Source of the DNA: Chloroflexota bacterium
Lineage (GTDB): Bacteria; Chloroflexota; Limnocylindria; Limnocylindrales; CSP1-4
NCBI GenBank assembly: GCA_034436555.1
Contig: DAOTUU010000033.1
Location: 259,720 to 323,719, forward strand
Direction of reading: 5' to 3'
Length of the DNA stretch: 64,000 bases
Below the pieces are notes generated by a model. It saw only the letters and a program-made list of their open reading frames with translations, did not search any database and had not been told where the DNA came from. Made by a program: the position numbers and the translations under genes. Shown piece after piece: positions 6,654 to 57,057 of the stretch; position 1 is the first letter of the stretch; each line of letters starts with the position of its first letter.

Positions 6654-7853
6654 GTGCTGACCCGACGACCGGAGCCGCGTCCCTGGGACGTGATCGCGCT
6701 CGAGGTGCTGCTGACCGTCGCCTGCGCCGTCCAGGTCGGCCTGCTGCTCTGGCTGGCGGTCGCGACGTGGGAGGAGCGGGGCGCGCCGGGCATGGTCATC
6801 GGCGTGCTGGTCATGGTGGCCATGGCGGTGGGCGCCGGCTGGTTCCTGTGGCTCACGGGCGTGAACGGCTGGCTGCTGGCGGGCGCCAGCGGCGTGGCCG
6901 GGATCGAGGTCGCGTTCCTGATGGTGCTGGGCGCGACCGGCCAGGTGCTCGGCGTCGGCGCCGGACCGCTGCTGCTCAGCCTGGGCGCCGCCGTCCTGGG
7001 CGTGTCATGCGGCATCTTCCTGCCGGCGCCGTCGGCGCGGCGATACGCGCCCACCCCGCGCGCCCGCGAGGTCGCGGGCGGCCCGCCCTCGGCACCCCCG
7101 ATCTCGCCGAGCGTCGCCGCGGCGGCCGACCGCTACGCCCGCCCGGTGGTCACGGGCGCGGTCGCGCTGACCGTCGCGGGCGCCCGCCGGATGCGTCGGA
7201 CCGGCGGTCCGTCCGCGGGCCCGGTCGAACCCTCGGTCGATGCCGCCCCCGACCCCGTGCTCCAGCCTCGCCCCGGCACCCCCATCCGGACCATGGCGCC
7301 CGCGGCGGGCACGGTGGACGGGCCGCCGACTGCCGTCGCGGGAAGCGCCTCCAAGGGCTCGACGGCCACCGTGCCGGCCCCGGCCGCGGGGACGCCGGCC
7401 GCGGGCGCGTCCATCGCCGCGAGCCCCGCCACCCCGGCCGCCGGGACGCCGGCCGCCGGGACGCCGGCCGCGGGCAGCGCCACCCGCTCCGGAACCGGGC
7501 GCACCCCCGGCGCGACCCCCGATCCGGGGGCCATCGCGCGCCAGGCGCGCGCCTCCATCGACGCGGAGTTGGCCAAGCCCCGTGGCGCCGGTCGAGGTGA
7601 CGCACCCGCCGGCACCGCGCCGGGATTCCGCCACGTCGACCCGCCCCCGCCCGCCACACGCGTCCCCGCACCATCCGGGGTCGAGCCCCGGTTCAGTCCA
7701 TCGGGTGGGTCGACCCCGCCCCGGCCGCCGACCGGCTCGCCGACGGCCCGCGCCGGGGACGCCCCGCAGCCGTCCGACCCCTCCTCGGTCACGCCGAGCC
7801 TCCGGCAGGTGCCGCCGGCCGATGGCGGCGACGGCACAGGGGTCGGACGGTGA
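6654..7853 (+). CDS. Membrane protein with four predicted TM helices and a long Pro/Ala/Thr/Gly-rich low-complexity C-terminal tail
   Basis: GTG 6654 preceded by AGGAGG at 6635-6640. N-terminal hydrophobic segments ([51 protein letters not shown] ...). Very high GC3. Stop overlaps the next start (GTGA). Confidence 0.5.
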
Positions 7854-8542
7854 CGGTCGCGGCGGTCATCCTCGCCACGCCGCCGGATCTCGGGCCCGGC
7901 GACCCGTCGGCGCGTGCCGGGGTCCGGCGCGCCGTGGAGACGGCCTGGGCCGGCGGCGCGATGCCCATCGTCGTGGTCGCAGCGGATCCCGACGGGCTCC
8001 TCGCGGGGGCGCTGGCGGGCAGCCAGGCCACGCTCGTGACGCCCGCCCCTCTCGACACCGGCCCGATGGCGCACCTCGCGCGCGGGATGCGCGTCGCCGT
8101 CGACCTCGTCTCCGGGACCGATGCGGTCCTGGCCTGGCCTGCGCGGTTCGCGTGGGTCGGCCCGGAGACCGTCACCAGCCTGCTCCAGGCGCACGGCCTG
8201 GATCCGGACACGCCGCTGCGACCCCGCTGGCAGGGCGAGGACGGCTGGCCGGTGCTCGTCCCGGTCCCGTGGCTTGCATCCCGCGAGCCCCGCCGGGCCG
8301 GACCATCCCGGGATGACCTGGCCAGCGAACTCCTGGACGCCGACACACCCACCCGATCGCTGGACCTGGGCGATCCGGGCAGCGTCATCGACCGCACAAC
8401 GCCCATCGACGCGCTGCCGCCGTACCAGGGTCCGTCAGAGCCCCCGGTCACGCCTCCCGACTGGGGCGCGTCGGTTCCCGACGCCATCGAGGAGCTGCCC
8501 GCCCGGCCCATCGTCCGGATCGACGCGGGCCACGACGCCTGA
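7850..8542 (+). CDS. Nucleotidyltransferase-like (MobA/CofC-like NTP-transferase fold) protein, putative
   Basis: GTG start overlapping the upstream stop (GTGA). N-terminus [16 protein letters not shown] resembles the NTP-transferase glycine-rich loop. The assignment is weak. Confidence 0.4.
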
Positions 8543-8729
8543 CGGCGAGCCGGGGACGTCGGACGGCCGCTTACCGCGGACGGCGGATCAGACCGTCGGC
8601 AGCGACTCCCGCCCGCTAGCATGGCACCAGGTCCCGGCCCGCGGTGACCCTGTCGGGTCCACGGGACGATGGCCGATCGGAGAGGACCGGCGGGCGTCGT
8701 CCGCCGGCGCAGTGCACGGAGGAGCATCC

Positions 8730-9788
8730 ATGCGACGACGACTCGCGACCCTGCTGGCCGCAGGGACCGCCCTGGCGTCCGCCACCGGGGTGAGCGCCCA
8801 GGACCCGAACCCCTCGCCCACGCCACCGCCCGATGCCCAGGCCGTCCTCGCCACCGTCCAGGCGCGGGGGCATCTCGTGTGCGGCGTCAACGGCAGCCTG
8901 CCCGGCTTCTCGGTCCTGGACGAGGCGACCGGCGCCTACTCCGGCTTCGACGCCGACTTCTGCCGCGCGGTGGCCGCCGCCGTCCTGGGCGACCCGACCA
9001 AGGTGGAGTTCCGACCCCTGACCGCGGCACAGCGCGGCCCCGCGCTGCAGACCGGCGAGGTGGACGTGCTCATCCGGAACACGACCTGGACCATCAGCCG
9101 CGACAACACGTGGGGCGAGTTCGCGCCCACCACGTTCTATGACGGCCAGGGCCTGATGGTCCGCGGCGACCTCGGGGTGTCGAGCCTGGAGGACCTCGCG
9201 GGCGCCACCATCTGCGTCCAGTCGGGCACCACCACCGAGCTCAACATCACCGACGCGTTCCGGGCCCGTGGGCTGGAGTTCACGCCGCTCGTGTTCGCCG
9301 AGATCGACCCCACGTATGCGGCCTATGACGAGGGCCGCTGCGACGCGGTCACCAGCGACCGGTCCCAGCTGGCCGGGCGGCGCACCACGTTCGCGGATCC
9401 CGCGGCCCACGTCATCCTGGACGACGTGCTGTCCAAGGAGCCGCTCGGCCCGGTCGTGCCCATGGGCGACCCCCAGTGGTTCGACATCGTGAAGTGGGTC
9501 GTGTTCGCGACGTTCGAGGCCGAGGAGCTGGGCATCACGAGCGAGAACGTCGCGTCCATGGTCGGCGGCGACGATCCCGTGGTGCGCCGGTTCCTGGGCG
9601 ACGAGGGCGACCTCGGCCAGGCGATGGCGCTGTCCAACGATTTCGTGGTCAAGGTCATCTCCGGGGTCGGCAACTACGGCGAGATCTTCGCGCGGAACCT
9701 GGGACCGGACACGCCGTTCGCGCTGGAGCGCGGCCTGAACGCCCTGTGGAAGGACGGCGGGCTGCTCTACTCGCCACCCTTCCGCTGA
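8730..9788 (+). CDS. aapJ: General L-amino acid ABC transporter, periplasmic substrate-binding protein (AapJ/BztA-like)
   Basis: ATG 8730 with GGAGG 8 nt upstream. Signal peptide MRRRLATLLAAGTALASATGVSAQ. SBP family 3 motifs (LVCGVNGSLPGFS, VDVLIRNTTWT). Followed by two permeases and an ATPase. Confidence 0.85.
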   Translation: MRRRLATLLAAGTALASATGVSAQDPNPSPTPPPDAQAVLATVQARGHLVCGVNGSLPGFSVLDEATGAYSGFDADFCRAVAAAVLGDPTKVEFRPLTAAQRGPALQTGEVDVLIRNTTWTISRDNTWGEFAPTTFYDGQGLMVRGDLGVSSLEDLAGATICVQSGTTTELNITDAFRARGLEFTPLVFAEIDPTYAAYDEGRCDAVTSDRSQLAGRRTTFADPAAHVILDDVLSKEPLGPVVPMGDPQWFDIVKWVVFATFEAEELGITSENVASMVGGDDPVVRRFLGDEGDLGQAMALSNDFVVKVISGVGNYGEIFARNLGPDTPFALERGLNALWKDGGLLYSPPFR

Positions 9789-9861
9789 TCGCCCGGCCAC
9801 CTGATCGACGCCCGGCCGGCACACGCCGCGCCGGGCGTCGCCTCACCCGAGGGCGCCCGGC

Positions 9862-12276: not shown

Positions 12277-13037
12277 CACAGTCGTCGTCGGCCCAGGCGA
12301 CCCATGGACCCATCATCGAGGTGGTCGAGGTCCACAAGTGGTTCGGCGACCATCACGTGCTGCGGGGCGTCTCGCTGGAGGTGATGCCCAGCGAGGTGGT
12401 GGTCATCTTCGGGCCGTCCGGGAGCGGCAAGAGCACCCTCATCCGGACCATCAACCGGCTCGAGACGCACCAGCGGGGCCGCATCGTGGTGGATGGCATC
12501 GAGCTCACGAACGACATCCGCAACATCGCCCAGGTGCGTCGCGAGATCGGCATGGTGTTCCAGCAGTTCAACCTGTTCCCGCACCTCACGGTGCTGGACA
12601 ACGTGACGCTCGCACCGGTCCAGGTGCGCGGCTGGAAGGCGGAGCGCGCACGGACCGTGGCGATGGAGCTGCTCACCCGCGTGGGCATCCCGGAGCAGGC
12701 GGGCAAGTACCCCGCCCAGCTGTCGGGCGGCCAGCAGCAGCGCGTGGCGATCGCGCGGGCGCTCGCGATGCAGCCGCGCATCATGCTGTTCGACGAGCCC
12801 ACCTCCGCGCTCGATCCGGAGATGATCAACGAGGTCCTGGAGGTGATGCGGGAGCTCGCCGCGAGCGGCATGACGATGCTGTGCGTGACCCACGAGATGG
12901 GGTTCGCGCGCGCCGTCGCGGACCGGATGGTGTTCATGGACGAGGGGTCGATCGTGGAGGTCGGCCCGCCGTCGCGCATCTTCGAGGCGCCCGCGGAGGA
13001 GCGCACCCGCCGGTTCCTCCAGCAGATCCGCCACTGA
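12273..13037 (+). CDS. aapP: Amino acid ABC transporter ATP-binding protein (AapP/GlnQ-like)
   Basis: ATG 12273 overlaps the permease stop (ATGA). Walker [10 protein letters not shown], signature [14 protein letters not shown], Walker [13 protein letters not shown]-loop CVTHEM. Confidence 0.9.
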
Positions 13038-13044
13038 CCGCCGG

Positions 13045-13245
13045 GGTCCGGCGCGAGGGCCACCGGCGCGTGGGCCACCGGCGCGTGGGCGCGTGGCCCT
13101 CCGCCCGTGCGTGGCCCGCCGCCCGTGCGTGGCGCGCTCCGCCCGTGCCACCACCGGTGGCGAATCTCCACGACTCGTGGAATCTCGCCACGCGTCGTGG
13201 AATCTGTCCACGACTCGTGGAGACCGTCCACGCGCGGCGTCGCTC
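13045..13245. repeat. Intergenic repeat array: 2x CCACCGGCGCGTGGG, 3x CCGCCCGTGCGTGGC, then about 4 tandem ~19-bp units each carrying the palindrome CCACGA-N-TCGTGG
   Basis: Read directly in the 244-bp gap between the convergent aapP and aspS genes. Confidence 0.6.
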
Positions 13246-13280
13246 CGCGACACACGGCGGGGATGGAGCCGTCCGGGGCG

Positions 13281-15131
13281 TCAGGCGGTCGGAGGCTCCC
13301 CATCGGGTGTCCTGGGCGCGAGCGCCAGGCCCAGCTCCGCCAGCTGCGCCATCTCGATCTCAGAGGGCGCGCCGAGCATCAGGTCGGATCCGGAGCTCGT
13401 CTTGGGGAACGCCATCACCTCCCGGATGTTCGTCTGGTCCGTGAGCAGGGCCGCCCAGCGGTCCACCCCCAGGGCGATCCCGCCGTGCGGTGGCGCGCCG
13501 TATTCGAACGCCTCGAGGATGCCGCTGAACTTGGCCTCCTGCTGTTCCGGGGAGTGACCCATCAGCGCGAACGAGCTGGACAGCCTCTCTCGCGTGTGGA
13601 ACCGCACCGAGCCGCCGCCCAGCTCCCAGCCGTTGAGCGCCAGGTCGTACTGCTGCGCGCGGGCACGACCGGCCGGATCATCGGGGCCGGGCCGGAAGGG
13701 ATCGCCGCTCGCGGTCACGAGCAACTCCTCGTCCTCCGGCAGCACACCGCTGAACGGGTTGTGGGTGGCGTCCCAGCGACCGTTGTCGGCGTCCCACTGG
13801 TACATCGGGAACTGATGCACCCAGACATACGCGAGCACCGCGGGATCGCCCAGGCCCAGGCGCGTCGCGACCTCGATGCGCACCTTGCCCAGCGCCTCCT
13901 GGGCATGCACGTCGCGGTCGGCGACGATGAGCGCAAGGTCACCCGGCAGCGCCCCGCAGGCCTCCGCGATCGCCCGGGCACGCCCGGCGCCCACGATCTT
14001 CACGATCGAGCCGCGCACCTCGGTCCCTGAATCCGCGGGCAGCGCGACCCACACGAGGCCGCGCGCACCGCCCTTCCGGGCGACCTCGGTCAGCTCATCG
14101 ATCTCCTTGCGGGTCGCGCCGCCCATGCCGGGCGCGGCGATGCCCATCACGCGGCCGCCGCCCGCGAGCGCGTCCTCGAACACGCCGAACCCCGACCCCC
14201 CGACCGCGGCGGCGAGGTCGTGCAGCTCCACGCCGTAGCGCAGGTCGGGCTTGTCGATGCCGAATCGGTCGATCGCCTCGCGCCACGTCAGTCGCGGGAA
14301 CGGGACCTGCGCGATGGGTCGCCCCGGGGTGACGGCCTGGCTGACCGCGATGGCCATCTCCTCCACCCAGGCCATCACGTCCTCCTCCCCGACGAAGCTC
14401 ATCTCCAGGTCCAGCTGGGTGAACTCCGGCTGGCGGTCTCCCCGCAGGTCCTCGTCACGGAAGCAGCGCGCGATCTGGAAGTAGCGGTCCATGCCCGCCA
14501 CCATCAGCAGCTGCTTGAGCTGCTGGGGCGACTGGGGCAGCGCGTACACGTTGCCCGGCTGGAGCCGCGACGGCACCACGAAATCCCGGGCACCCTCCGG
14601 CGTGGACTTGATGAGCAGCGGCGTCTCCACCTCCACGAATCCCGCGGCATGGTGCGCCTCGCGGATCGCCTGGACCAGGCGACCGCGCGCCAGGATGCGC
14701 TTCTGGAGCGGCTCGCGACGCAGATCCAGGTAGCGGTAGCGCAGCCGGATGGACTCGTCGACCGGGGCATCGGGGTCGTTGATCAGGAACGGCGTGTTGC
14801 GAGCGGTCGACAGGATCCGGATGCCGCTCGCGCGAAGCTCCACGTCCCCCGTGGCCAGCCTGGGATTGTGCGTCCCCTCCAGGCGCTCCGCGATCCGGCC
14901 GGTCACCTGGAGCACGAACTCCGAGCGCACCCCGGAGGCGACCGCGTGCGCCTCGGGCGCCTCCTCGGCGTCGAGCACCACCTGGGTGATGCCGTACCGG
15001 TCCCGCAGGTCGATGAAGATCAGCTGGCCCAGGTCTCGGCGACGGTGGACCCAGCCCGACAGGGAGACGGTGCGGCCGACGTGCTCGGGGCGCGCGTCGG
15101 CGCAGGTGAGATCGCGGTAGGAGGTCTTCAT
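13281..15131 (-). CDS. aspS: Aspartyl-tRNA synthetase
   Basis: MKTSYRDLTCADARPEHVGRTVSLSGWVHRRRDLGQLIFIDLRDRYGITQVV (OB anticodon-binding fold). Class II motifs FRDEDLRGDRQPEFTQLDLE and GGGSVRFH. ATG at 15131. Confidence 0.9.
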   Translation of the reverse strand: MKTSYRDLTCADARPEHVGRTVSLSGWVHRRRDLGQLIFIDLRDRYGITQVVLDAEEAPEAHAVASGVRSEFVLQVTGRIAERLEGTHNPRLATGDVELRASGIRILSTARNTPFLINDPDAPVDESIRLRYRYLDLRREPLQKRILARGRLVQAIREAHHAAGFVEVETPLLIKSTPEGARDFVVPSRLQPGNVYALPQSPQQLKQLLMVAGMDRYFQIARCFRDEDLRGDRQPEFTQLDLEMSFVGEEDVMAWVEEMAIAVSQAVTPGRPIAQVPFPRLTWREAIDRFGIDKPDLRYGVELHDLAAAVGGSGFGVFEDALAGGGRVMGIAAPGMGGATRKEIDELTEVARKGGARGLVWVALPADSGTEVRGSIVKIVGAGRARAIAEACGALPGDLALIVADRDVHAQEALGKVRIEVATRLGLGDPAVLAYVWVHQFPMYQWDADNGRWDATHNPFSGVLPEDEELLVTASGDPFRPGPDDPAGRARAQQYDLALNGWELGGGSVRFHTRERLSSSFALMGHSPEQQEAKFSGILEAFEYGAPPHGGIALGVDRWAALLTDQTNIREVMAFPKTSSGSDLMLGAPSEIEMAQLAELGLALAPRTPDGEPPTA

Positions 15132-15429
15132 GAGGTCCCCATGGTACGGGAGGTCGATGGGGCCCGATCGGCGACCCGGTGGTGGAAGTCGCGGCGGTCG
15201 AGCGTCGGAGACCGCCGCCGCACCGCGATCGAGTACCGTCGGCGATGGCGCGCAGCTCGGAGTCGCGGGCGCGCGTCCGCGATCAGGATGCGATCGTCGA
15301 GCGTGGCAACTCAGGGCGCACGGGATTCGTGGCGGGGTCGGCACTCCAACCCGCTGCGCAGCGAAGGTTGCGACGCTGCTCGACCCTGCGCCAAGGCATC
15401 CGTCCTATGTCACGGGGCGAGCCGAGCAA

Positions 15430-16113
15430 TCAGGGATAGTCGCCGGGCTGCCCCACCCTTCGCCGCGACACGGTAAGCCAGGCCAGGGCGAAAGAGGCCA
15501 CGAAGACTGCGCTCAACCTCCATAGAGTGTCGGGCCTCGATGTTTCGCGACCCCGGACGGTGGCCATAGCCGTCGGCGGTAGTTGGCCAGCGCCGACAAG
15601 AGACAGGGCATCCTGGAGGTCATGAACGTCCCACACGTCTGGATAGAGCCTTCGGGGTAGCTCGAACGCCACGAGTTCCACGCCATCCCCATCCAGCTCC
15701 CACGCGACCGTATTCCCGGCGTCAGGTGCCGCGAGATCAGCCGAGGAGACGAGGTACGTGCGACCTTCAACGAATGCGTTCAGCCCGTGGCAGGCGATGA
15801 CCTCGTATGTCACGGGGTCGTGCGCCACTGAACCGCGCACGACTCGCTCCACGCTCCAGCGGTGTTGCCGCGGGAAGGCGCCCGAATCATCCCCTTGGAA
15901 CGTGCCGATGAACGCATCGCCGGTGGCACTAGCGATGCGCATCGGCGCTCTGCGCTGGAGATCGCAGTCGGCGGCTACCGGCACCGAAAGGAGCATCACT
16001 CCGACCACCCCGCCCGCGACTGCTACCCACAGTGACCGAACGCTGCGAGGTGCGATCTTCACGAGCAGGCTACTGGGTGCACTGTGAGAGGCCTGAAACG
16101 CATACGTGGACAT
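15430..16113 (-). CDS. Hypothetical protein with an N-terminal signal/TM segment and a C-terminal TM anchor; lower GC than its surroundings
   Basis: ATG 16113 with GGGAG upstream (alternative GTG at 16062). KIAPRSVRSLWVAVAGGVVGVMLLSVPVAADCD signal-like. C-terminal LWRLSAVFVASFALAWLTV. The rest of ORF 15430..16800 overlaps the protease gene out of frame and was rejected. Confidence 0.5.
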   Translation of the reverse strand: MSTYAFQASHSAPSSLLVKIAPRSVRSLWVAVAGGVVGVMLLSVPVAADCDLQRRAPMRIASATGDAFIGTFQGDDSGAFPRQHRWSVERVVRGSVAHDPVTYEVIACHGLNAFVEGRTYLVSSADLAAPDAGNTVAWELDGDGVELVAFELPRRLYPDVWDVHDLQDALSLVGAGQLPPTAMATVRGRETSRPDTLWRLSAVFVASFALAWLTVSRRRVGQPGDYP

Positions 16114-17332
16114 CGAAGAGATCTCCCGTCCAGGATTGGTGGCGCGCATACCCCTCGTCCCCGGAGTGATCGCTCTCCCAGGGCTCGCAGTCATCGTCGT
16201 TCGGAATCGAGCGGCACCCAGACTGGATGCCGTAGATGGTGTGCCCGTAGAAGACAGGACCACCACTGTCACCGCCGGCCCACTGGTAGTAGCCCAACGC
16301 CTGTAGGTATAGCCAGACGTTTGTGGACTCGTTGAATGAGGCATACGTCGTGGTGATGACCTTGTCGGCGGCCCCGTAGCCGGTGGTCCTTCCGGACAGC
16401 CGGACTTTGGTCCCGGCGACTGCGCTTCCAACAGCGTCGATCGCCCACGCCTTCTCGTCGTTGCTGCGGTAGATCTTGTGTCCCTCCCACGCTTGGATGT
16501 CGCCCAAGCCGAGAATTGCGAAATCCGTGTAGCTGGTGGAGAAGTACGCATTCTTCTGCACACCTCCAAAGTCGTGGCCGTTCTGGTCGTGCCACTGGTC
16601 GCCGCCGGTGGCGTTGAAGCAGTGACCCGCGGACAGCATTCGAATCGCTCCGCCAGCTTTCCACGCGACAGCTCCCGTCGTGCAATCGTGGGAGCCGATG
16701 GTGAGCCCGCCTCTGGTCGGTGCTTGCCAGCAGTCATGTCGAGAGTTACATGCGGTATTCTGGGATCCTCTCCCCTCGACGACACGAACGAGACCGGCAT
16801 TGAACTCCGCCTCGGTCATCGCGCGGACAGCACCGATTTGGTTTCTGGGCGCCTCGACCTGGACGATGTTGTCCGCACCCCAGATCCCGAAGCCAACGAT
16901 GTCGGAGGCTCGCTGGTCCGACCGAGATGTCCAGTCCATCAACTTGCCCAGTACACCGTCAAGGGCTGCCTGGGAGTTTGGGACCACCTCGAACCTCGAC
17001 TCCACAAAGCCGGGAAGGGCGTCGCGAGCAGCGTCCCGCTGAGGCGCGGTAGTAGTCTCAAGAACCTGGATGACGACTCTGGGCGATGGTATGTCCTCGA
17101 TGTAGATACCGCCGTAGTCGCGCGGGGCAGACTCAATCAGCTCCACCAACGGACCGACTGAGTTCTGAACCTTTTCACGGAACAGCTCGTCATCTATCGA
17201 GCCGACCATCGTCTGAGCAATCCATTCTGCCGGTACCGCGGACGCGTCTCTGGCCCCCATGACCACGGATGCGCCGATCAGCAGGAGGCATGACGAAGCC
17301 GCGACCGCAAGTCCCGGCCGACGAGTTGCCAT
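16070..17332 (-). CDS. Secreted S1 family serine protease, alpha-lytic protease/streptogrisin-like, with N-terminal pro-region
   Basis: LSAGHC (His), GDSGGP (Ser), multiple Cys pairs. Signal peptide MATRRPGLAVAASSCLLLIGASVVMGARDASA. GGAGG 6 nt upstream of ATG 17332. GC3 is clearly lower than in flanking housekeeping genes. Confidence 0.8.
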   Translation of the reverse strand: MATRRPGLAVAASSCLLLIGASVVMGARDASAVPAEWIAQTMVGSIDDELFREKVQNSVGPLVELIESAPRDYGGIYIEDIPSPRVVIQVLETTTAPQRDAARDALPGFVESRFEVVPNSQAALDGVLGKLMDWTSRSDQRASDIVGFGIWGADNIVQVEAPRNQIGAVRAMTEAEFNAGLVRVVEGRGSQNTACNSRHDCWQAPTRGGLTIGSHDCTTGAVAWKAGGAIRMLSAGHCFNATGGDQWHDQNGHDFGGVQKNAYFSTSYTDFAILGLGDIQAWEGHKIYRSNDEKAWAIDAVGSAVAGTKVRLSGRTTGYGAADKVITTTYASFNESTNVWLYLQALGYYQWAGGDSGGPVFYGHTIYGIQSGCRSIPNDDDCEPWESDHSGDEGYARHQSWTGDLFDVHVCVSGLSQCTQ

Positions 17333-17705
17333 TGCTGCCCTCCTGTGTATGGAGCGTGCCCTCACGATTGGCTGCCCCGAACGATATCACCGTCGTTAAC
17401 GCACGGACAACGGCGAGGTCAAGGCGGCGCGGCAGGCAGTGGAGCACCGTTGGGACGCAGGTTGGCGTCGGGCGTGGCGCCTGCATGCAAAGAGGCCCAG
17501 GCGGCTCTCAGGTGACGGATCGGCTGCGATGAAATCTGCCGAGTCATCGACTTCGTTGCGGGGCGCACCTCGCATCACGGCCGATCCTGATTGGGTGCTG
17601 GTGAGCATCGATTCCTTGGCGCCTAGCGCTTCGGTCGCTCGCCGCAGCCGCCCTCCGGCGTCCCGTGTCGGAACCTGTCAAGTCGGATGAGACACGCGGT
17701 GTCGA

Positions 17706-18713
17706 TCAGGTCTGTGCAGGCGGCTCCTTCGGCGGGTTGATCCAGGCGGGTCCCGGCAGCCTCGGCGGCTCGGGGTGCCTGTTGACGAACCGCTCCGGAT
17801 GGGCGGCGTATGCGGCGTCCAGGACGAGGGCGCGCCGCTCGCGGACCAGGGTCGCTGTGCCGAGGTGGACCGAGGCGGGCGTGTGGTACCCGATGCCCGA
17901 GTGGCGATGCTCGTGGTTGTAGACGTCCATGAAGGGGCCCACGAACGCCCGCGCGTCCTCGATGCTCCCGAACCGCTCCGGGAAGCCGGGGCCGTGCTTG
18001 AGCGTCTTGAAGGCCGCCTCGCTGTAGGCGTTGTCGTTGGACACGCCCGGCCGACCGTGGGTGCGCCCGATGCGCAGGTCCGCCAGCAGCTGGGTCACGG
18101 GCTTGGAGGTCATCGGCGCGCCACGGTCGGCGTGGACCGTGAGGCGGCCGGGCTCGAAGGGTCCGTGGACCCGGACCAGGTCGGCGATCCAGCCGGCCAC
18201 GAGGTCGCCCCGCTCGTGGGGGACGACCATCCAGCCCGGGCAGTACCGGCTGTACAGGTCGAGCATCACGAACAGCCGGTACCAGACGCCCCTCCGGGGT
18301 CCGGGCAGCGCGGTCGCGTCGTAGGACCACACCCGGCACGGACCGTCGGCCACCAGCTCGGGGATCGTGCGGGGCGGATGGACCGCCTGGCGCCGGCGCT
18401 CGCGGACCCCGCCGTCGGCGCGCAGGATCCGGTACATCGTGGACTCGGACGCGAGGTACGTCCCCTCGTCGAGCAGCGTGGCCCACGCCTGGGCGGGCGC
18501 CCGGTCCACGAAGCGCTCCGAGCCGAGCACGTCCTTGACCGCCTCCCGCTCGTCCGGCGTCAGGGCGTTCGTCGGCGTCGGACGGGGGCGTGGCGGACCC
18601 TGGCGGGGCGGCAGGAGCCGGCGGTACCAGGTGGCGCGCGAGCGGCCCACCGCGGCACAGGCGCCCTTCGTGCCGACCAGCGGCAGGAGGTCGGCGAACG
18701 CGCTCTCGATCAC
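17706..18713 (-). CDS. IS3-family transposase OrfB (HTH_21 + DDE rve integrase core)
   Basis: CAAVGRSRATWYRRL (HTH_21), WSYDATAL (D), HADRGAPMTS (D), SNDNAYSEAAFKTLK (E). GTG 18713 with GGACGAGG upstream. The rest of ORF 17706..19490 overlaps the IS110 transposase gene and was rejected. Confidence 0.75.
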   Translation of the reverse strand: MIESAFADLLPLVGTKGACAAVGRSRATWYRRLLPPRQGPPRPRPTPTNALTPDEREAVKDVLGSERFVDRAPAQAWATLLDEGTYLASESTMYRILRADGGVRERRRQAVHPPRTIPELVADGPCRVWSYDATALPGPRRGVWYRLFVMLDLYSRYCPGWMVVPHERGDLVAGWIADLVRVHGPFEPGRLTVHADRGAPMTSKPVTQLLADLRIGRTHGRPGVSNDNAYSEAAFKTLKHGPGFPERFGSIEDARAFVGPFMDVYNHEHRHSGIGYHTPASVHLGTATLVRERRALVLDAAYAAHPERFVNRHPEPPRLPGPAWINPPKEPPAQT

Positions 18714-18779
18714 CGCGGCTGCCTCGTCCCCTCGTCGCCCTCGGCCAGCAGCCGCTCCAAGAGCTCCGATGCTAGCCTG

Positions 18780-20075
18780 AGAATCCCCAGGCTCGGCTCG
18801 ATCCCGATCAGGCGGCCTCGTCGAGGGTGACGTGGTAGCCAAGGGCCTCGAGGCGCTTGACCGTGCGCCGCACGGTCGCTGTCCGATCGCGCTGGTCGAA
18901 CCAGGTCGGGCCCAGCTCCTGGTACACGACACCGTCCCGGAGCAGGTGATACACGATGACCAGGATGGAGTGCCCGACCGCGACGGCCGCCCGGCCGGCG
19001 CCGCGCCGCGCGGCGATGCGCCGGTACTGGGCGGCGAGATAGGTGCCCTTCGTATGGGCGGCCGCGTGGGCCGCCTCGACGAGCGCGGTGCGGAGCCAGG
19101 CGTTGCCCGGGCCGGTCGCCCCGGATCGGCGCTTGCCGGCGCTCTCGTCGGTGCCAGGGCAGACCCGCGCCCAGGAGGCGAGGTGGGCTGCGGACGGGAA
19201 GCGGGACATGTCCGGGCCGATCTCCGCGAGGATGGCCTCAGCCGTCCGCAGCGCGACACCCGGGATGGAGTCGACGAGCGCCAGCGTGGCCCCGAAAGGG
19301 CGCATCCGCTCCGCCACCTCGGCCGACAGGGTCGCGATCTCAGCGTCCAGGAAGTCGATGTGCCGCAGCTGCGCCCCGAGCATCCGACGCTGGTGCTCGC
19401 CGAGCAGGCCGCGGAGCGCGGCCACGAGCCGGTCGTGCTTGGAGCGCAGTCGCCCGCGTGCGAGCCCCGCGAGCGCCTCGGCATCGTCACCCCCGGCCAC
19501 GATCGCCTCGAGCATCGCCCGCCCTGACACCCCCAGCAGGTCGGAGGCGACCGCGCCGAGCTTGATGTCGGCGCCCTCGAGGACCTTGTGCAGCCGCTGG
19601 ACCTCGCGGCCGCGCTCGTCGATCAGCCTGCGCCGGTGGCGCACGAGCTCGCGCTGGGCCCGGTCGGGGACGAAGCTGCCCCGCAGCAGGCCGTGGCGCA
19701 GCAGGTCGGCGACCCGCTCCGCGTCCCTCACGTCGGTCTTGCGTCCGGGCACCGCGCGCATGTGGCGGGCGTTCACGAGGAGCAGCTCGAGGCCGCCACC
19801 CTCGAGCAGGTTGTACACCGGCTTCCAGCAGACGCCGGTGCTCTCCATCGCGGCGTGGGTCACGCCCCGATCGGCGAGCCAGTCGGCCAGCTCGAGCAGG
19901 CCGGCGGTGACCGCACCGAACGTGCGCACCTCGCGGCCCTCGGGGGTGATGACGCAGGCGACCACCGTGTCCCGGTGGACGTCGAGCCCTGCGCAACGTT
20001 CGTGGAGCACCTCCATCGCGCACCTCCATCCGGTCTGGCGGTGGCGGGCTCGACGACCGGAGCGCGAGAATCTAG
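18780..20075 (-). mobile_element. IS110-family insertion sequence nested inside the IS3 element
   Basis: The transposase gene fills most of the element. Junctions carry TAGCCTG/AGAATC (18771-18784) and GAGAATC/TAGCCTG (20066-20079). Boundaries are approximate. Confidence 0.65.
18808..20016 (-). CDS. IS110-family transposase (DEDD N-terminal domain + C-terminal transposase_20 domain)
   Basis: MEVLHERCAGLDVHRDTVVACV (DEDD motif 1), ESTGVCWKP. C-terminal LRTALVEAAHAAAHTKGTYLAAQYRRIAARRG. GGAGGTG RBS 5 nt upstream of ATG 20016. Confidence 0.9.
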   Translation of the reverse strand: MEVLHERCAGLDVHRDTVVACVITPEGREVRTFGAVTAGLLELADWLADRGVTHAAMESTGVCWKPVYNLLEGGGLELLLVNARHMRAVPGRKTDVRDAERVADLLRHGLLRGSFVPDRAQRELVRHRRRLIDERGREVQRLHKVLEGADIKLGAVASDLLGVSGRAMLEAIVAGGDDAEALAGLARGRLRSKHDRLVAALRGLLGEHQRRMLGAQLRHIDFLDAEIATLSAEVAERMRPFGATLALVDSIPGVALRTAEAILAEIGPDMSRFPSAAHLASWARVCPGTDESAGKRRSGATGPGNAWLRTALVEAAHAAAHTKGTYLAAQYRRIAARRGAGRAAVAVGHSILVIVYHLLRDGVVYQELGPTWFDQRDRTATVRRTVKRLEALGYHVTLDEAA

Positions 20076-20181
20076 CCTGCGTGCTCCCCGGCGTGGGCCG
20101 GGGGCGACAATGGGTGGTGCCTGCGGTCGTCGGGGTCCAGACTTTTCACGGGCTGTCGGCACCAAGCGAGCACGGCCTCGA

Positions 20182-20568
20182 TCAACCCGCCACCGGCACC
20201 ATTCTCATCCACCGGGTGGTGCGGCGGAACGGCGCATCGATGACTTTTCCCTGGATGCCGATCACCAGGCGCGCCTTCGCCAGGTCCGCCTCGGCTCTCT
20301 CGGCCCTGCGGCGCAGTCGGGCCAGCTCGGCCTGCTCCGGGCTGGTCGCGCGAGGGCGGGGCCGCTGCCCCAGACCGGCGAGTGCGCCCGCGTCCCGGGC
20401 CCGGCGCCACTCCACGATGTGGGAGCTGTACAGGCCCTCGCGGCGCAGGAGCGAGCCCCGCGATCCGTCGGTCGGGGCGGCGTCGTACTCGGCCAGGATC
20501 GTCGCCTTGTACTCCGCGGTGAAGGTCCGGCGCACCGGGCGCTCGGGAGGGGTCGGGTCTCCGTCCAT
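20182..20568 (-). CDS. IS3-family transposase OrfA (HTH + leucine zipper)
   Basis: RRTFTAEYKATILAEY (IS3 OrfA HTH), LARLRRRAERAEADLAKARLVIGIQGK (zipper). Start uncertain (ATG at 20568, 20592 or 20613). Ends just after a GGGAAAA heptamer. Confidence 0.7.
   Translation of the reverse strand: MDGDPTPPERPVRRTFTAEYKATILAEYDAAPTDGSRGSLLRREGLYSSHIVEWRRARDAGALAGLGQRPRPRATSPEQAELARLRRRAERAEADLAKARLVIGIQGKVIDAPFRRTTRWMRMVPVAG
20245..20251 (-). other. Candidate -1 programmed ribosomal frameshift heptamer G GGA AAA (X XXY YYZ) at the 3' end of IS3 orfA
   Basis: Minus strand reads atc cag GGA AAA gtc in the orfA frame. The -1 frame continues open (…GLIEAVLAWCRQPVKSLDPDD…) until a TAG created at the IS110 junction. 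Confidence 0.45.
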
Positions 20569-20891
20569 GGCCGCATGATGCGCGCGCTCCATGGTCAGCG
20601 TCGTGATGCTCATGGTCGTCAGGCTGGTGTCCTTCTCGCCCTGTGGGATGACGGGTCGCTGCCCGTGTCTCACCCTATGCTGACAGACAGGGAAGCATGC
20701 AACCGCCGCTGGACAGAAGACTCCACCGCCAGCGTGTGCGATCGCGCCCTTCGCACGCTGCCCGCGCACCGCAAAGACCACGAGGCTGGCCTCGACCAGC
20801 GTCCGTCCCGGGCGCCGCCGAGGATTGCCGCGTCGCGCCGCTCCGCGCTGGTCGGGTGTGCCCCTTCGCGGCTTCGAACAGGTCGCCCCTG

Positions 20892-21155
20892 ATGGCACTA
20901 CATCATGCACAATGCAGCTATGGTGCATCGTGTGAGAACACCGTCGACCTTTCGCCCGCTGCGCGTGCATTGGAAGTCGCCGCAGCGCGGGGCATGTCGC
21001 TCTCGGCGACGATCGCGGACCTGACGTCACTGGGTCTGGAGCGCATGCGCGAACCGGTGACGCTGTCCATCGATGCGCAGTCTGGGTTCCCGGTGATGCG
21101 GTTCGGGTGGCGCATCACGAACGAGGATATCAGGGCCGCCCTGGACGACGAGTGA
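20892..21155 (+). CDS. Small ribbon-helix-helix-like protein, possible orphan antitoxin/regulator; low GC3
   Basis: VDLSPAARALEVAAARGMSLSATIADLTSLGLERMRE resembles RHH/CopG. Codon usage (gca cta cat cat gca caa tgc agc tat) is unlike the host genes. A weak call. Confidence 0.3.
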   Translation: MALHHAQCSYGASCENTVDLSPAARALEVAAARGMSLSATIADLTSLGLERMREPVTLSIDAQSGFPVMRFGWRITNEDIRAALDDE

Positions 21156-21300
21156 CCATGTGGTTCGCGGTCGGACGCCAAGATAGCGACGATCGATGCC
21201 GGTTTCGCACAGGCGCTGCCGGATCTGACATTCCTGGTCCCCGAGTGACAGCGGTGTGCGAACGGCGCGAGGAACGGCAGCCCGGACCGGAACGTGGCGC

Positions 21301-22413
21301 TCAGGTGGGTTCGGGGTCGTCAGGATCGCCGGTCGGGACGCCTTCGGCGGTCGCCGCGGACCGGCCATGCGGGTCGCCTGGGCGATGGACGTCGCGATAC
21401 CGCCAGCGCCGGTAGCGGTCACGGGCGGTCGCCCCCAGCCCCAGGACACGGGAGCCGACGGGAGCCAGCGTCAGGCGCCACGCTCCCACGTAGTCGACCT
21501 CGTGCCCGCCGAAGCCGCTCTTGAACTGCTCGATGCCCTCGCGCGGCAGGCCCCACAGGTCGTACTGCGTGTAGCCAGCCGCCTTCATGCGCCGCAGCGC
21601 CTCCCACTTGAGGAGGTAGTTCGCGCGACGCCGGGCGCCCTTCTCGGTGGTGCCGCCGTACAGGTCCGCGACCCGCCGGCCGCAGCCGACGAGGAGCACC
21701 GCCGCCACCGCCTCGCCCGTGTCCACGGCCTCCGCGAACAGCAGGTGGGCCTTGCCGCGCGGCGCCAGGTGGGTCCACATCTCCCGGAACGCCTCCTCGC
21801 TCCGGGGCGCGATGCCGGCCCGCTGCAGTGCCTCCGCGTGGATCGCGTGCAGCTCGCCGATGCGTGCCGCGTCGCCCGCGACCACGCACACTCCGAGCCG
21901 CTCCGACTTGGACACCGACTGGCGAGTCTTGCGGTGCATGCCCGCCAGGATCGCTGGCTCGTCCTGGGCCAGGTCGATGATGCGCGTGCGGTCGGGCTGG
22001 ACGTGGTCGGTGCGCCGCCATCCTGCGCGGATCAGCTCGCGCGCCAGCCGCCCGTCCCCCGCGTCCGCCTCGGGCTCCATCACGATCGTCGCTAGCCGGT
22101 GACGCCGCCCCGCCTCGCGCAGGCGCCGGGTGACGGCCAAGACCTGCGCCCGGCTCAGCGTCCCGTCCGCGGTGACGGGTCCGCGCGCGAGGTAGCCCAG
22201 CCCCCAGGGCAGGCCACGCGGACGCTGCACCAGCACCTGCGCCCCCACGAGGCCGCCGTCCGGGTCCGCGGCGACGCGGAACGAGGACCAGCCATTCGGC
22301 CGCTTGACCGCCGCCCAGGCGCTCGACTGGAGGTGGCAGGGCGCCGCGGACGCCGCCAGGAACGCCTCCCAGGCCACCTCGTCGACCTCCAGCCGGGCGG
22401 CGGCGTCGGTCAC
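21301..22413 (-). CDS. FemAB-family peptidoglycan aminoacyltransferase (tRNA-dependent lipid II peptidyltransferase-like)
   Basis: GTG 22413 overlaps the hisS stop (GTGA). WEAFLAASAAPCHLQSSAWAAVKRPNGW, YLLKWEALRRMKAAGYTQYDLWGLPREGIEQFKSGFGGHEV (Fem C-terminal signature). 370 aa. Confidence 0.8.
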   Translation of the reverse strand: MTDAAARLEVDEVAWEAFLAASAAPCHLQSSAWAAVKRPNGWSSFRVAADPDGGLVGAQVLVQRPRGLPWGLGYLARGPVTADGTLSRAQVLAVTRRLREAGRRHRLATIVMEPEADAGDGRLARELIRAGWRRTDHVQPDRTRIIDLAQDEPAILAGMHRKTRQSVSKSERLGVCVVAGDAARIGELHAIHAEALQRAGIAPRSEEAFREMWTHLAPRGKAHLLFAEAVDTGEAVAAVLLVGCGRRVADLYGGTTEKGARRRANYLLKWEALRRMKAAGYTQYDLWGLPREGIEQFKSGFGGHEVDYVGAWRLTLAPVGSRVLGLGATARDRYRRWRYRDVHRPGDPHGRSAATAEGVPTGDPDDPEPT

Positions 22414-23714
22414 GCGTCGCCGGTCCCGTGCTTGTGCTGCGCCTCGCCGCGCTGGAGGTCGCGGACAAGGTCGTCCAGGTCCACCCGGCGCTGGGTCCCT
22501 GCCTGGAGGTCCTTCACCTGGACCTGGCCCGCGGCGAGCTCATCTCCGCAGATGACCGCGAAGTGGGCGCCCTCCCGCGAGGCTCCCTCGAGCTGCTTGC
22601 CCAGCTTGCGCGGCGCCAGGTCCGCCCGCGCGGCGAGACCCCCGGCGCGCAGGAGCGTGGCGACCCGCAGGCGCGGCACGGTGTCCGCCGGATCGGCGCC
22701 CACCACCACGATGGCGGCGCGGGGTGGTGCGATCGGCTCCGCGCCCTGCTCCGCGAGCGCCAGCACCACCCGGTCAAGGCCCAGCCCGAAGCCGATGCCC
22801 GGCGTGGGCCGGCCGCCCAGCAGCTCCACCAGGCCGTCGTAGCGACCGCCGCCGCCGAGCGCCTGCTGCTGGCCCTCTGCCCCGGCGCGGTAGAACTCGA
22901 ACGCGGTGCGGGTGTAGTAGTCGAGGCCGCGCACCAGGCGGGGCGCGGGTCGGGGGCTGACGCCCAGCGCCGCGAGGTGCGCCCGGACGCCGTCATGGTG
23001 CGCCCGACAGGCGTCGCACAGGTGGTCCGTGATGGTGGGCGCGTCCGCGATGAGCGACTGCATCCGCTCGTCCTTGGAGTCCAGGAGCCGCAGCGGCGCC
23101 GTCTCCAGGCGCTGCCGCTCAAGCTCCGGCAGGTCATCCGCGAACCGTCGGAAGTGCGCCTGGAGCAGGGCCACGTACGCCGGGCGGCAGGCGCCATCGC
23201 CGATGGAGTTGAGCAGCACCTCGACACCCGACACGCCCGCCACGGCGTAGAACCGCAGCCCCAGCTCGACGATCTCGGCGTCGATGCCCGGGCCCGGGTC
23301 GCCGATCGCCTCCACGTCGAACTGCCAGAACTGGCGATACCGTCCCGCCTGGGGCCGGTCGTAGCGGAACATCGGCCCGGTCAGGGTCAGCTTCACGGGC
23401 TGGGGCAGCGTCTGCATGCCGTGCTGGATGTATGCCCGCACGAGTCCCGCGGTCGGCTCCGGACGGAGCGCCCAGCGCTCGCGCTCCTGGTCGCCGCGGC
23501 CGGCCTGGACCCGGAACAGCTCCTTCTCCACCACGTCCGTCACGGCGCCCACGCCCCGCTCGAACACCTCGCTCTGCTCGAACAGGGGCGTCTCGATGGG
23601 CTGGTACCCGTAGCGCGTCGCGAGGTCGCGGGCGATCGTCTCGAGACGCAGGAAGGCGGCCCGTTCGGGCGGCAGCAGGTCGCGGGTGCCCCGCGGGGCT
23701 TGGTACCTCGGCAC
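22410..23714 (-). CDS. hisS: Histidyl-tRNA synthetase
   Basis: Class II motifs 1/2/3 (RYQAPRGTRDLLP, FRYDRPQAGRYRQFWQ, GGGRYDGL). HisA/HisB anticodon-binding C-terminus. 434 aa. Confidence 0.9.
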   Translation of the reverse strand: MPRYQAPRGTRDLLPPERAAFLRLETIARDLATRYGYQPIETPLFEQSEVFERGVGAVTDVVEKELFRVQAGRGDQERERWALRPEPTAGLVRAYIQHGMQTLPQPVKLTLTGPMFRYDRPQAGRYRQFWQFDVEAIGDPGPGIDAEIVELGLRFYAVAGVSGVEVLLNSIGDGACRPAYVALLQAHFRRFADDLPELERQRLETAPLRLLDSKDERMQSLIADAPTITDHLCDACRAHHDGVRAHLAALGVSPRPAPRLVRGLDYYTRTAFEFYRAGAEGQQQALGGGGRYDGLVELLGGRPTPGIGFGLGLDRVVLALAEQGAEPIAPPRAAIVVVGADPADTVPRLRVATLLRAGGLAARADLAPRKLGKQLEGASREGAHFAVICGDELAAGQVQVKDLQAGTQRRVDLDDLVRDLQRGEAQHKHGTGDA

Positions 23715-23751
23715 GGCCGAAGGATAGCGGCGTGGCCTACGATGTGCCGCG

Positions 23752-24573
23752 ATGTCCGTGTCCGCGAACGACCGCCCGGCTGCCTCCTCCGGCGACCGCC
23801 TGGGCTATCTCATCGGCGTCTTCGGGTGCGCCTTCTCGATCACCGCGCTGTGGCTGTGCATGCGCGCCGTGTTGGACATCGGCGGCTCCTGCGGGTCGGG
23901 TGGGCCCTACGAGATCGCCGTGCCCTGCCCGCCAGGGGTCGACCTGCTGCTCGTGCTGGCGTTCCCGCTGGGGTTCGCCTCGGTCGGGCTGATGGTCTGG
24001 AAGGGAGCCCGCCTGGGCGCCGCCTGGGTGGCCCTGGCGGGGCTGGCGTGGCCCGCGGTGTTCCTGTCGCTGGGCTGGAACTTCATCGAGTACGGGCTCT
24101 GGCCGCCGGTCACCGGGGACCCCGGGCTGGGATTCCTCATCCCCGGGGTGGTCTTCCTGGTGATGGGCGGTGTGCCGCTCTGGTTCTGGTGGATCGGCCG
24201 CGGCGATGCCCCGGCCGTGCCGGGATCGCGAGGGACGCGTGCCCGGTCGGATCTGCGCCAGCTGCGCGACCTGCGGGATGCGATGGCGCACGCGGCGGTC
24301 GACGCGCGCCGCAGGGGTGGCCCGACGGCCGACCGGCTGACCGTGCGCCAGGCGATGTCCCTGCCGGGGTCGTCGGACTCGGCCCCGCCGCCATCCCCGG
24401 CGGTCGCGGTCGCGCCGGCCCCCGACGCCGGCGGCGAGGGGGACCGCAGCGAGGCGTTCGTGGCCCAGCTGGAACGCCTCGCGGTGCTCCACCGCGCGGG
24501 CGACCTGTCGCTGCTCGAGTTCCAGGCCGCCAAGGCCGCGCTCCTCGCGAACGCGGGCGGGGACCCGCGATGA
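23752..24573 (+). CDS. Membrane protein with C-terminal SHOCT domain
   Basis: Four or more TM helices, then LERLAVLHRAGDLSLLEFQAAKAALL (SHOCT-like short C-terminal motif). Confidence 0.6.
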   Translation: MSVSANDRPAASSGDRLGYLIGVFGCAFSITALWLCMRAVLDIGGSCGSGGPYEIAVPCPPGVDLLLVLAFPLGFASVGLMVWKGARLGAAWVALAGLAWPAVFLSLGWNFIEYGLWPPVTGDPGLGFLIPGVVFLVMGGVPLWFWWIGRGDAPAVPGSRGTRARSDLRQLRDLRDAMAHAAVDARRRGGPTADRLTVRQAMSLPGSSDSAPPPSPAVAVAPAPDAGGEGDRSEAFVAQLERLAVLHRAGDLSLLEFQAAKAALLANAGGDPR

Positions 24574-56295: not shown

Positions 56296-57057
56296 TCAGG
56301 GGACCCCCACGCCCGACGGGCGCGCGACTCCAAGAAGGTCGAGCAGGCCGAACAGGTCCGCCACCACCGGTGCCCCGTGATCGAGGCCCGCGGTCGTCGC
56401 TTGTTCGTGGGCGTGGGATCCGCGCGCGATGAGCACCGGCGCGATGCCCACCGCCCGGGCACCCTCCACATCCGCGCGCGGGGAGTCACCCACGTGGACG
56501 GCGTCCGCGGCGACCACGCCCATCCGCTCCAAGGCATGCTCGAAGATGCCTCGATGGGGCTTCTCGAAGCCCACCCGCGCGCTCGTCACGATGGCTTCGA
56601 GCTGGTCGACCAGCGCCAGGGTGTGGAGCAGCTCCGGCAGGCTCCACCCCCAGTTGCTGATGACGCACAGGCGGAGACCCGCGTCGCGGAGCGCCGCGAG
56701 GGCGGGCTGCGTGTCCGGGAACACCCACCAGGCATCCGCCTGGGCGAACTCCGCCTCGAGATCCCGGTAGAACGTCACCGGCTGCTCCGGATGACCCAGC
56801 TCCCCCAGCACGCGCGAGTCGAACGCCACGAGGCGCTGGAACGAGGCGGCCTGGGACGCCTCGAACGGACCCTCCAAGTCCGGGCGCGGCGAGCGAAAGA
56901 CCCGCTCGAGGGCGGTGCGCAACTCCGTCTCCTCGACGGCGACCCCGTGGGAGCGCAGGACGGGGAGGTACACCGCGGCCCACGAGGGATGGGCGCGGAT
57001 GAGCGTGTCGCCGACATCGAGGAACACGACCGAGGGGTGTGGCGGGGCCATCGCCAC
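56296..57057 (-). CDS. HAD-superfamily hydrolase (subfamily IA-like)
   Basis: Motif I VVFLDVGDTLI (DxD/T), motif II ISNWG, motifs III/IV KPHRGIFEHAL ... VHVGDSPRADVEGA. Confidence 0.8.
   Translation of the reverse strand: MAMAPPHPSVVFLDVGDTLIRAHPSWAAVYLPVLRSHGVAVEETELRTALERVFRSPRPDLEGPFEASQAASFQRLVAFDSRVLGELGHPEQPVTFYRDLEAEFAQADAWWVFPDTQPALAALRDAGLRLCVISNWGWSLPELLHTLALVDQLEAIVTSARVGFEKPHRGIFEHALERMGVVAADAVHVGDSPRADVEGARAVGIAPVLIARGSHAHEQATTAGLDHGAPVVADLFGLLDLLGVARPSGVGVP

Follow-up and report, generated by a model that had tools for sequence, protein, structure and literature searches.

Genes between hisS and aspS

The window, a 64,000-nt stretch of Chloroflexota DNA with an overall GC content of 72.7%, carries the genes for histidyl- and aspartyl-tRNA synthetase, hisS and aspS, and between them a FemAB-family gene (fem), a small gene, an IS3-family insertion sequence (IS) that holds an IS110-family element, and a protease gene with a partner gene. 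The start of fem and the stop of hisS overlap by 4 nt, and the interval considered here, 15132–21300 (6169 bp), runs exactly from the aspS start (15131) to the fem stop (21301). The original prediction had read this interval as one recently acquired, lower-GC island that split a conserved hisS-aspS pair. Two sequences served as references for several features: L005, a related genome, and L090, a related IS3 copy on the Microbacterium sediminis plasmid NZ_CP038257.1. In order of position in the window, the features are as follows.

13281–15131, minus strand: aspS, aspartyl-tRNA synthetase (Pfam tRNA-synt_2, 7e-103; GAD; OB anticodon domain), the left native flank
15132–15429: spacer between the partner gene and aspS, 298 bp, GC 0.71, present down to 15263 in contigs of three other sequencing runs
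15430–16113, minus strand: partner of the protease, a 227-aa ORFan, called as the same gene on the Logan contig L082
16070–17332, minus strand: prepro S1E (streptogrisin/alpha-lytic type) serine protease, 420 aa, assigned by family profile and motifs
17333–17668: spacer upstream of the protease, 336 bp, non-coding, GC 0.66, into which the IS3 element is inserted
~17669–20682, minus strand: IS3-family element, its ends set by alignment with L090
17669–18773, minus strand: 3' part of the IS3 element, with orfB (DDE/rve) at 17706–18713 and the right inverted repeat at ~17669–17696
~18774–20243, minus strand: IS110-family element within the IS3 element, with the transposase at 18808–20016, the left end at 20017–20243 and the right end at 18774–18807
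20244–20682, minus strand: 5' part of the IS3 element, with orfA from the ATG at 20592 and the left inverted repeat at ~20664–20682
20683–20919: spacer from the IS3 element to the vapB-like gene (~210 bp up to the start of that gene), with no counterpart in L005, GC ~0.72 and no coding signal
20892–21155, plus strand: vapB-like antitoxin gene, with homology to its L005 counterpart starting at codon ~16, N-terminus replaced
21156–21248, plus strand: vapC (PIN) remnant, about the last 27 codons, no start codon
21301–22413, minus strand: fem, an aminoacyl-tRNA-dependent transferase-like gene of the FemAB family (Pfam FemAB, 8.1e-22; Acetyltransf_6, 5e-17), native
22410–23714, minus strand: hisS, histidyl-tRNA synthetase (Pfam tRNA-synt_His, 1.3e-36; HGTP_anticodon), the right native flank

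The genes that had been listed for the block (an S1 protease, a membrane-anchored protein, an IS3 element with a nested IS110 and a small gene) were all present, the ribbon-helix-helix (RHH) fold of the small gene itself being unmatched.

Base composition of the block is not uniform

GC at third codon positions (GC3) separated the genes of the region as follows.

Flanking genes: aspS 0.92, hisS 0.93, fem 0.925
IS block: IS110 transposase 0.93, IS3 orfB 0.95, IS3 orfA 0.90
Low genes: protease 0.73, partner 0.72, small vapB-like (RHH) gene 0.74 as a whole and 0.82 over the part shared with L005

As a measure independent of strand, we took, for each 450-nt segment, the GC of whichever codon phase was richest; over the 64 kb this value had a mean of 0.896 and a standard deviation of 0.064. 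At 15001–17850 it fell to 0.67–0.79; this is the longest low-GC3 run in the window and holds the window's lowest overall GC. A second, shorter dip lay at 20551–21600, and the IS block between both dips was normal: this IS3::IS110 block of ~3 kb has a GC of 0.73 and a host-like GC3 of 0.90–0.95. The atypical DNA comprises ~2.4 kb (15.3–17.7 kb) and, less strongly, ~0.7 kb (20.55–21.3 kb), together ~3 of the 6.2 kb. The lower GC3 predicted for the block was thus confirmed for the protease, its partner and the small gene but not for the IS elements, and sliding windows revealed two low patches flanking ~3 kb of normal composition. Because the IS block is host-like, and because bounding direct repeats, a tRNA gene and an integrase are lacking, the idea of one ~6-kb low-GC island did not hold. 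The vapBC genes are mildly GC3-poor (0.81–0.85) both in the window and in L005.

Elsewhere in the window, GC dips to 0.66–0.68 also at 57000–58000 and 61000–62500, which could be further atypical segments.

The hisS-aspS junction varies among relatives

We collected 80 loci around aspS homologues and searched them with the window's proteins. In 48 of these, all Limnocylindria-type, hisS lay upstream of aspS on the same strand. The window AspS was at most 79% identical to proteins of Chloroflexota metagenome-assembled genomes (MAGs; Limnocylindria/Limnocylindrales), with L001 as the best relative (79% at the amino-acid level). The source therefore belongs to that class and has no closely related sequenced genome within the set of species representatives that was searched. 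Exact-protein look-ups returned no record for AspS or for the 87-aa product of the small gene.

The assumption that hisS and aspS are adjacent held only loosely in this lineage. Although the genes were co-oriented in all 48 relatives, the gap between them ranged from 65 to 4101 bp and was below 150 bp in just 5 of the 48, with a varied set of genes in between. At 7278 bp, the gap in the window was the largest seen. An orthologue of fem (59–62% amino-acid identity) followed hisS in L001, L002, L003, L005 and L069, and a more distant FemAB-like gene (26–30%) occupied the fem position in L004, L006, L007 and L008. In L001 only ~100 bp separate fem from aspS, an arrangement that would effectively represent the empty site.

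Other relatives carried different cargo at the junction, including a methyltransferase (12 genomes), a glyoxalase-fold protein (8), a DsrE-like protein (5) and a homocysteine S-methyltransferase (5), as well as a cupredoxin, a macro-domain protein, membrane proteins and others, and the stretch directly upstream of aspS was different in nearly every one of them. Not one of the 48 loci in which hisS and aspS are linked carried the protease, its partner or these IS elements. When the block was compared with the 80 loci by blastn, L005 gave the sole match, at the small gene and the vapC remnant. The varied cargo and gaps across relatives indicate that the junction is a lineage-wide variable spot and that hisS and aspS were no tight pair before the insertion. 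Judged by gene order, the junction is apparently a site of recurrent gene gain and loss across Limnocylindria-type Chloroflexota.

Between fem and vapBC, L005 also encodes (6946–8814) a Kelch/delta-60-repeat beta-propeller protein of ~500–620 aa, another lineage-specific insert at the junction. A FemAB-type gene, that is, one of the peptidoglycan-bridge transferase type, is kept between hisS and aspS in the closest relatives, and its position embeds a tRNA-using transferase in a tRNA-synthetase cluster.

The small gene belongs to a decayed vapBC module

The small gene, which had been taken for an orphan RHH gene within the island, matched L005 at 9577–9819, with 74% identity over 78 aa by tblastn and, for window positions 20920–21156, 79.5% identity over 244 nt by blastn. 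The L005 homologue occupies the equivalent position, likewise reading divergently from aspS, and its stop overlaps the start of a 132-aa PIN/VapC gene (PF01850, 1.4e-5; TIGR00028, 5.6e-20). In the window, positions 21162–21241 matched the last codons of this vapC gene (L005 9269–9190; blastn, 76%), the translation of the remnant, DAKIATIDAGFAQALPDLTFLVPE, aligned with DARVATIDEGFAQALPSLASLVPT of L005, and ~310 bp of the L005 vapC were missing. The small gene therefore stands as an orphan because ~310 bp of vapC have been deleted, and its sharing with L005 indicates that it is the antitoxin of a decayed vapBC module predating the insertion. DNA similarity to L005 begins at 20920 and ends to the left of it, indicating that the first ~15 codons and the upstream region of the vapB-like gene have been replaced.

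The RHH fold found no match in Pfam (E ≤ 5) or in the PDB (E ≤ 10); the N-terminus of the vapB-like protein, TVDL... followed by two helix-like segments, is compatible with it by eye only. The module resembles VapBC type II toxin–antitoxin systems in that the L005 antitoxin gene overlaps the PIN gene start and the window keeps the antitoxin together with C-terminal codons of the toxin. It differs from them in that the window toxin is deleted, the antitoxin N-terminus and upstream region are replaced, and the RHH fold was not confirmed by search.

An IS110 element splits the IS3 element at its frameshift site

The IS3 element encodes an OrfB with rve (PF00665, 4.8e-15) and rve_3 (PF13683, 1.3e-12) matches and an OrfA that matched Pfam HTH_Tnp_1 (1.9e-4) and has homologues on Actinomycetota plasmids. 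Its inverted repeats, at 17675–17696 and 20664–20686 in the sequence comparison, are imperfect and pair CTGTCA..GGATGAGACACG. The inner element matched Pfam DEDD_Tnp_IS110 (PF01548, 3.7e-30) and Transposase_20 (PF02371, 1.3e-20), and its transposase scored 258 bits, against a cutoff of 140, with NCBIfam NF033542, 'IS110 family RNA-guided transposase'. Its junctions, read from the sequence and fixed by comparison with L090, give a left end of 227 nt and a right end of 34 nt, with CT (plus strand) on both flanks at 18772–73 and 20244–45.

A slippery heptamer, G_GGA_AAA (TTTTCCC on the plus strand), is located at 20245–20251. In-silico deletion of 18774–20245, that is, of IS110 and one CT, restored CAGGGAAAAGCATCGGAGCTCTTGGAG, with orfA ending in ...GKASELLERLLAEGDEGTRQPR* and orfB in the −1 frame. 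In the restored IS3, the orfA stop lies 24 codons after the heptamer, a spacing equal to that of L090. The CT flanks and the restored reading frames indicate that the IS110 insertion point directly follows the frameshift site of IS3; orfA and orfB are thereby separated, which disables IS3. The nested arrangement inferred earlier was thereby supported. We also considered the junction as a 5-nt CATCG duplication and rejected it, because IS3 orfA was then out of register with its Microbacterium homologue, whereas the CT-core model restores the canonical spacing.

The outer element has the marks of the IS3 family: an HTH orfA followed by an rve orfB in the −1 frame, the G_GGA_AAA heptamer, an OrfA end of the form '...GKxxxLLE...PR*', imperfect inverted repeats and a length of ~1.54 kb. 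In contrast to that family, the window copy is broken up by IS110 just past its frameshift site and has no recognisable target-site duplication (3–5 bp in this family), none being found at any plausible boundary. The inner element fits the core-flanked architecture of the IS110 group, with a long left end (LE) and a short right end (RE) (PMC11208160). Like the IS621-like bridge-RNA recombinases of that group (PMC11208160), it combines DEDD and Tnp domains, lacks terminal inverted repeats, has the same dinucleotide on both flanks and sits in a repeated element; unlike for them, no bridge RNA could be demonstrated for it, with no Rfam match and a fold z-score of −0.93 for the left end. A precedent is provided by IS1111 relatives, which target transposon ends (cited in PMC11208160).

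In the left end (20017–20243, minus strand), CAGGCTAG followed by ATTCTC forms a permuted copy of the right-end terminus, GATTCTCAGGCTAG. This match, not significant alone, could represent a bridge-RNA donor guide. A search of the left end for guide-like matches yielded a single 8-mer, and 518 of 2000 shuffles were equally good. To our knowledge, no preference of IS110 elements for the IS3 frameshift window has been described; the present insertion may reflect targeting of this conserved window. No further IS3 or IS110 copies were found within the 64-kb window, and exact look-ups returned no record for the IS110 transposase and only its own contig for IS3 orfB.

The protease is a divergent member of the S1E family

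On its own, the protease matched no Pfam or NCBIfam family. As a single sequence it matched the Streptomyces Glu-specific protease 1hpg (E = 0.0016), with its AGHC and GDSGG motifs aligned with those of 1hpg and 1sgc. An exhaustive HMMER search of 1.84e9 representatives recovered 279 relatives, the best non-self one being 36% identical. A family profile made from the window protease and 29 homologues (30-sequence alignment A1) matched 2sfa (1.4e-31), 1hpg (4.6e-29), SGPB (1.8e-27) and alpha-lytic protease (~1e-22), and its positions 94–210 matched the alpha-lytic pro-region 2pro (3.9e-5), which makes them a candidate for the pro-region that serves as a folding chaperone in this family; one weak hit carries PF02983. 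Within the alignment, H237 and S356 of the catalytic triad were invariant, D270 was conserved in at least 90% of sequences and invariant among the five closest, and several cysteines were likewise nearly invariant. The N-terminus is hydrophobic and signal-like by hydropathy, and the protease is probably secreted.

The protease thus shares with the S1E family (MEROPS S1E; SGPA, SGPB, SGPE and Lysobacter alpha-lytic protease) a predicted signal peptide, a probable long pro-region, a ~190-aa chymotrypsin-fold catalytic domain, the His-Asp-Ser triad in the order of that fold and the cysteines. Compared with that family, however, it is very divergent and has additional Cys-rich segments on both sides of the catalytic core; in addition, its gene overlaps that of the partner, and the window allele is 10 residues short.

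Protease and partner form a low-GC cassette

The partner gene overlaps the 3' end of the protease gene by 44 nt. By hydropathy, its product has a hydrophobic, signal-like N-terminus and a second hydrophobic stretch near the C-terminus, with RRR just behind it; the sequence also contains an LPPTA motif. The product matched no family in Pfam, NCBIfam or PHROG, a word-indexed search of 5.8e9 proteins found only the protein itself, and a single-sequence AlphaFold prediction was unusable (mean pLDDT 38). A homologue emerged from gene order: the gene directly after the protease homologue P0008 (contig L084, 3747–4346) is 37% identical to the partner over 171 aa (E = 4e-24). The partner and this sole detected homologue have in common an LP(P/D)T(A/S) motif ~40 residues from the C-terminus. 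The partner is probably anchored in the membrane or wall.

The C-terminus of the window partner, with its motif, hydrophobic stretch and RRR, resembles a sortase sorting signal.

Contig L084 matches a predicted viral contig of IMG/VR at 99.9% identity. The pair on L084 has a truncated DNA methyltransferase of phage type on one side and a DDE transposase (DDE_Tnp_1) on the other. Scans of viral and metagenome sequences with the protease family added essentially one element, L086 (= L087), which is ~99.9% identical to L084. The protease homologue P0007 is located near a terminase fragment, and the homologue in L083 has a GC3 of 0.83, compared with 0.98 for its neighbours. At the partner position, other homologues have unrelated secreted proteins, L083 an RTX-like repeat protein and L094 a lipoprotein-like gene; from these neighbourhoods, the pairing of protease and partner is evidently not universal.

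The exact partner sequence was present in three further runs (SRR24928193, SRR35759026 and SRR35759035), whose contigs L091–L093 match window positions 17434–15263 with at most 3 mismatches (3 in 2158 nt). The same cassette and aspS-side spacer in three other runs indicate that the cassette is established in the species. These contigs also contain 30 nt that the window protease allele, which occurs in run DRR075734 as well, lacks in frame at ~16151. The missing stretch is flanked by two GAGGGGTAT repeats and codes for EGYFSQLDLL, 10 residues aligned with a conserved C-terminal segment of the homologues, so that the mature domain of the window allele is not intact. We propose that the loss is a slippage deletion in this strain; as the 10 residues are conserved, the protease of this strain may be impaired.

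The low GC3 of the two genes, their absence from the 48 relatives and the transposase and phage contexts of their homologues together support horizontal acquisition of the protease pair. We infer that the cassette came from a donor of ~60–65% GC by a phage- or IS-associated route.

Boundaries and assembly support

The left boundary of the foreign DNA could be bracketed to ~15160–15430, and material not shared with L005 ends at ~20893–20920, a boundary that clips the first codons of the vapB-like gene. The 145 bp between the small gene and the fem stop include the vapC remnant. When the four spacers were locally aligned with one another in either orientation, no flanking repeats emerged beyond shuffled controls. 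No tRNA gene lies near the block, the only one in the window being at 62709, and Pfam scans of nine ORFs found no integrase. We rejected the possibility that IS3 had disrupted a gene, as joining 17333–17668 to 20683–20919 gave flat GC1, GC2 and GC3 in all frames.

Two Logan contigs of run DRR075734 are 100% identical to the window, L081 over 22937–20893 and L082 over 18787–14610. L081 links hisS, fem and the small gene; L082 independently links IS3 orfB, the protease, the partner and aspS.

A probable mosaic of independent events

Overall, these data suggest, with a probability of roughly 75%, that the spacer between fem and aspS is a mosaic produced by several independent events at a plastic junction, rather than one island. 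At least four separate events have occurred at the locus. In the proposed scheme, the ancestor would have had hisS-fem and aspS co-oriented, with a vapBC module divergent from aspS, as in L005. A foreign, lower-GC cassette of protease and partner would then have been gained between vapB and aspS, with both genes reading in the aspS direction. IS3 would subsequently have entered the non-coding stretch upstream of the protease, and IS110 would have integrated at a CT core that adjoins the frameshift heptamer of IS3 on its 3' side. Decay would account for the loss of ~310 bp of vapC, the replacement of the vapB 5' end and the 30-nt slippage deletion in the protease of this strain. We infer this order of events; the cassette may have come before or after IS3, and IS3 may have taken part in a rearrangement.

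Five points weigh against the mosaic as drawn. With an AspS identity of only 79% for the best relative, and intergenic DNA that does not align, no genome is close enough for an exact empty site. The stretch 18787–20893 is without an independent contig. As no target duplication was found for IS3, the element may be the trace of a rearrangement and not of a simple insertion. The link to the partner consists of one homologous pair, other protease homologues being followed by unrelated genes. Finally, the mild GC3 deficit of vapBC in both genomes means that this module may itself be an older acquisition.

Under the original prediction, the whole 6.2 kb (protease, membrane protein, IS3::IS110 and RHH gene) would be a single, recently acquired island splitting hisS from aspS. 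All non-housekeeping genes do stand together between two native genes, with mobile elements among them, and the block as a whole is found in no relative. However, the IS block has the GC (0.73) and GC3 (0.90–0.95) of the host, the RHH gene and vapC remnant are common to L005 in position and orientation, most of the closest relatives already have fem between the two synthetase genes, and there are no flanking repeats, tRNA gene or integrase; a single island is therefore very improbable. What survives of the horizontal acquisition is the protease pair (0 of 48 relatives, GC3 ~0.2 below the host, homologues at most 36–37% identical), not the RHH gene, which as a gene shared with L005 is no island cargo. 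'Recent' found no support, as the nearest genome, 79% identical in AspS, allows no dating and the cassette occurs in three other runs. The comparison with relatives did provide an effective empty site in L001 and a gene order that differs among relatives, but bracketed the boundaries rather than fixing them exactly. If instead the protease pair were native, its low GC3 would reflect gene-specific constraints (a secreted, weakly expressed protein of unusual amino acids) and its distribution differential loss. This would agree with the L083 homologue, whose GC3 is likewise below that of its neighbours (0.83 versus 0.98), and with S1E proteases being common in high-GC soil bacteria. Yet the GC3 deficit of 0.2 spans both genes and the non-coding flanks, absence from 48 of 48 relatives would require many independent losses, and the best homologues, at most 36% identical, lie beside transposase or phage genes, making native origin quite unlikely.

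Alternatively, the cassette might owe its arrival or its present arrangement to IS3, for example because IS3 copies recombined or because IS3 is one arm of a decayed composite transposon; cassette and IS3 would then represent one event. IS3 abuts the upstream spacer of the cassette and has no target-site duplication, and the cassette homologue in L084 is also next to a transposase. As that transposase belongs to another family (DDE_Tnp_1), only one IS3 copy is present with none on the aspS side, and IS3 and cassette differ sharply in composition, we consider such delivery unlikely. The chance that the block is an assembly artefact, a mis-join at repeated IS elements, is slim in the extreme. 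Short-read contigs do break at the IS110 edge, and 18787–20893 lacks separate support; nonetheless, L081 and L082 independently connect the genes on either side, and because every close relative has hisS-fem next to aspS, the joining of both sides is expected. Of these accounts, the mosaic of independent events fits the data best.

Like small genomic islets at variable intergenic hot spots, the mosaic is atypical in composition, is missing from relatives, has IS elements next to it and lies at a locus whose cargo varies between lineages. It differs from them in lacking an integrase, a tRNA gene and att-like repeats, and in being put together from several parts. What looks by composition like an 'island' between housekeeping genes can thus be a stack of unrelated events, and treating such a stack as one unit would misassign the origins of its genes. 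All components are of known kinds, with the divergent protease–partner pair and the IS110-in-IS3 target being mildly unusual; current understanding is not overturned, and the locus illustrates ordinary genome plasticity in a little-studied, mostly uncultured group. The rare, very divergent S1E protease with its linked ORFan partner could merit expression. More tentatively, and with more doubt than confidence, one could propose jointly that the deeply divergent protease and a dedicated secreted partner with a conserved LPxT(A/S) motif constitute an undescribed mobile two-gene module moving among high-GC bacteria on phages and IS-flanked segments and that, separately, IS110 is RNA-guided to the IS3 frameshift window, specifically parasitising and inactivating IS3. 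In such a module, the partner could be an anchor, an inhibitor, an immunity protein or a maturation factor.

The region upstream of aspS

Upstream regions of aspS from nine relatives were alignable over only ~25 nt, which include the CGTACCATGG motif. In the window this motif lies at 15139–15148 (minus strand), 8–17 nt upstream of the aspS ATG, and MAFFT alignment of the upstream regions showed it also in L002, L003, L005 and L069. The motif may be a −10-like box, promoter or leader that lets aspS tolerate upstream insertions, and aspS would keep its own promoter in this motif. Promoter and terminator scans gave no signal above chance, and an Rfam scan of 13000–24000 matched no family. In the intergenic region 3' of aspS, at 13048–13232, there are three neighbouring short tandem arrays with periods of 15, 18 and 20 nt and ~3 copies each.

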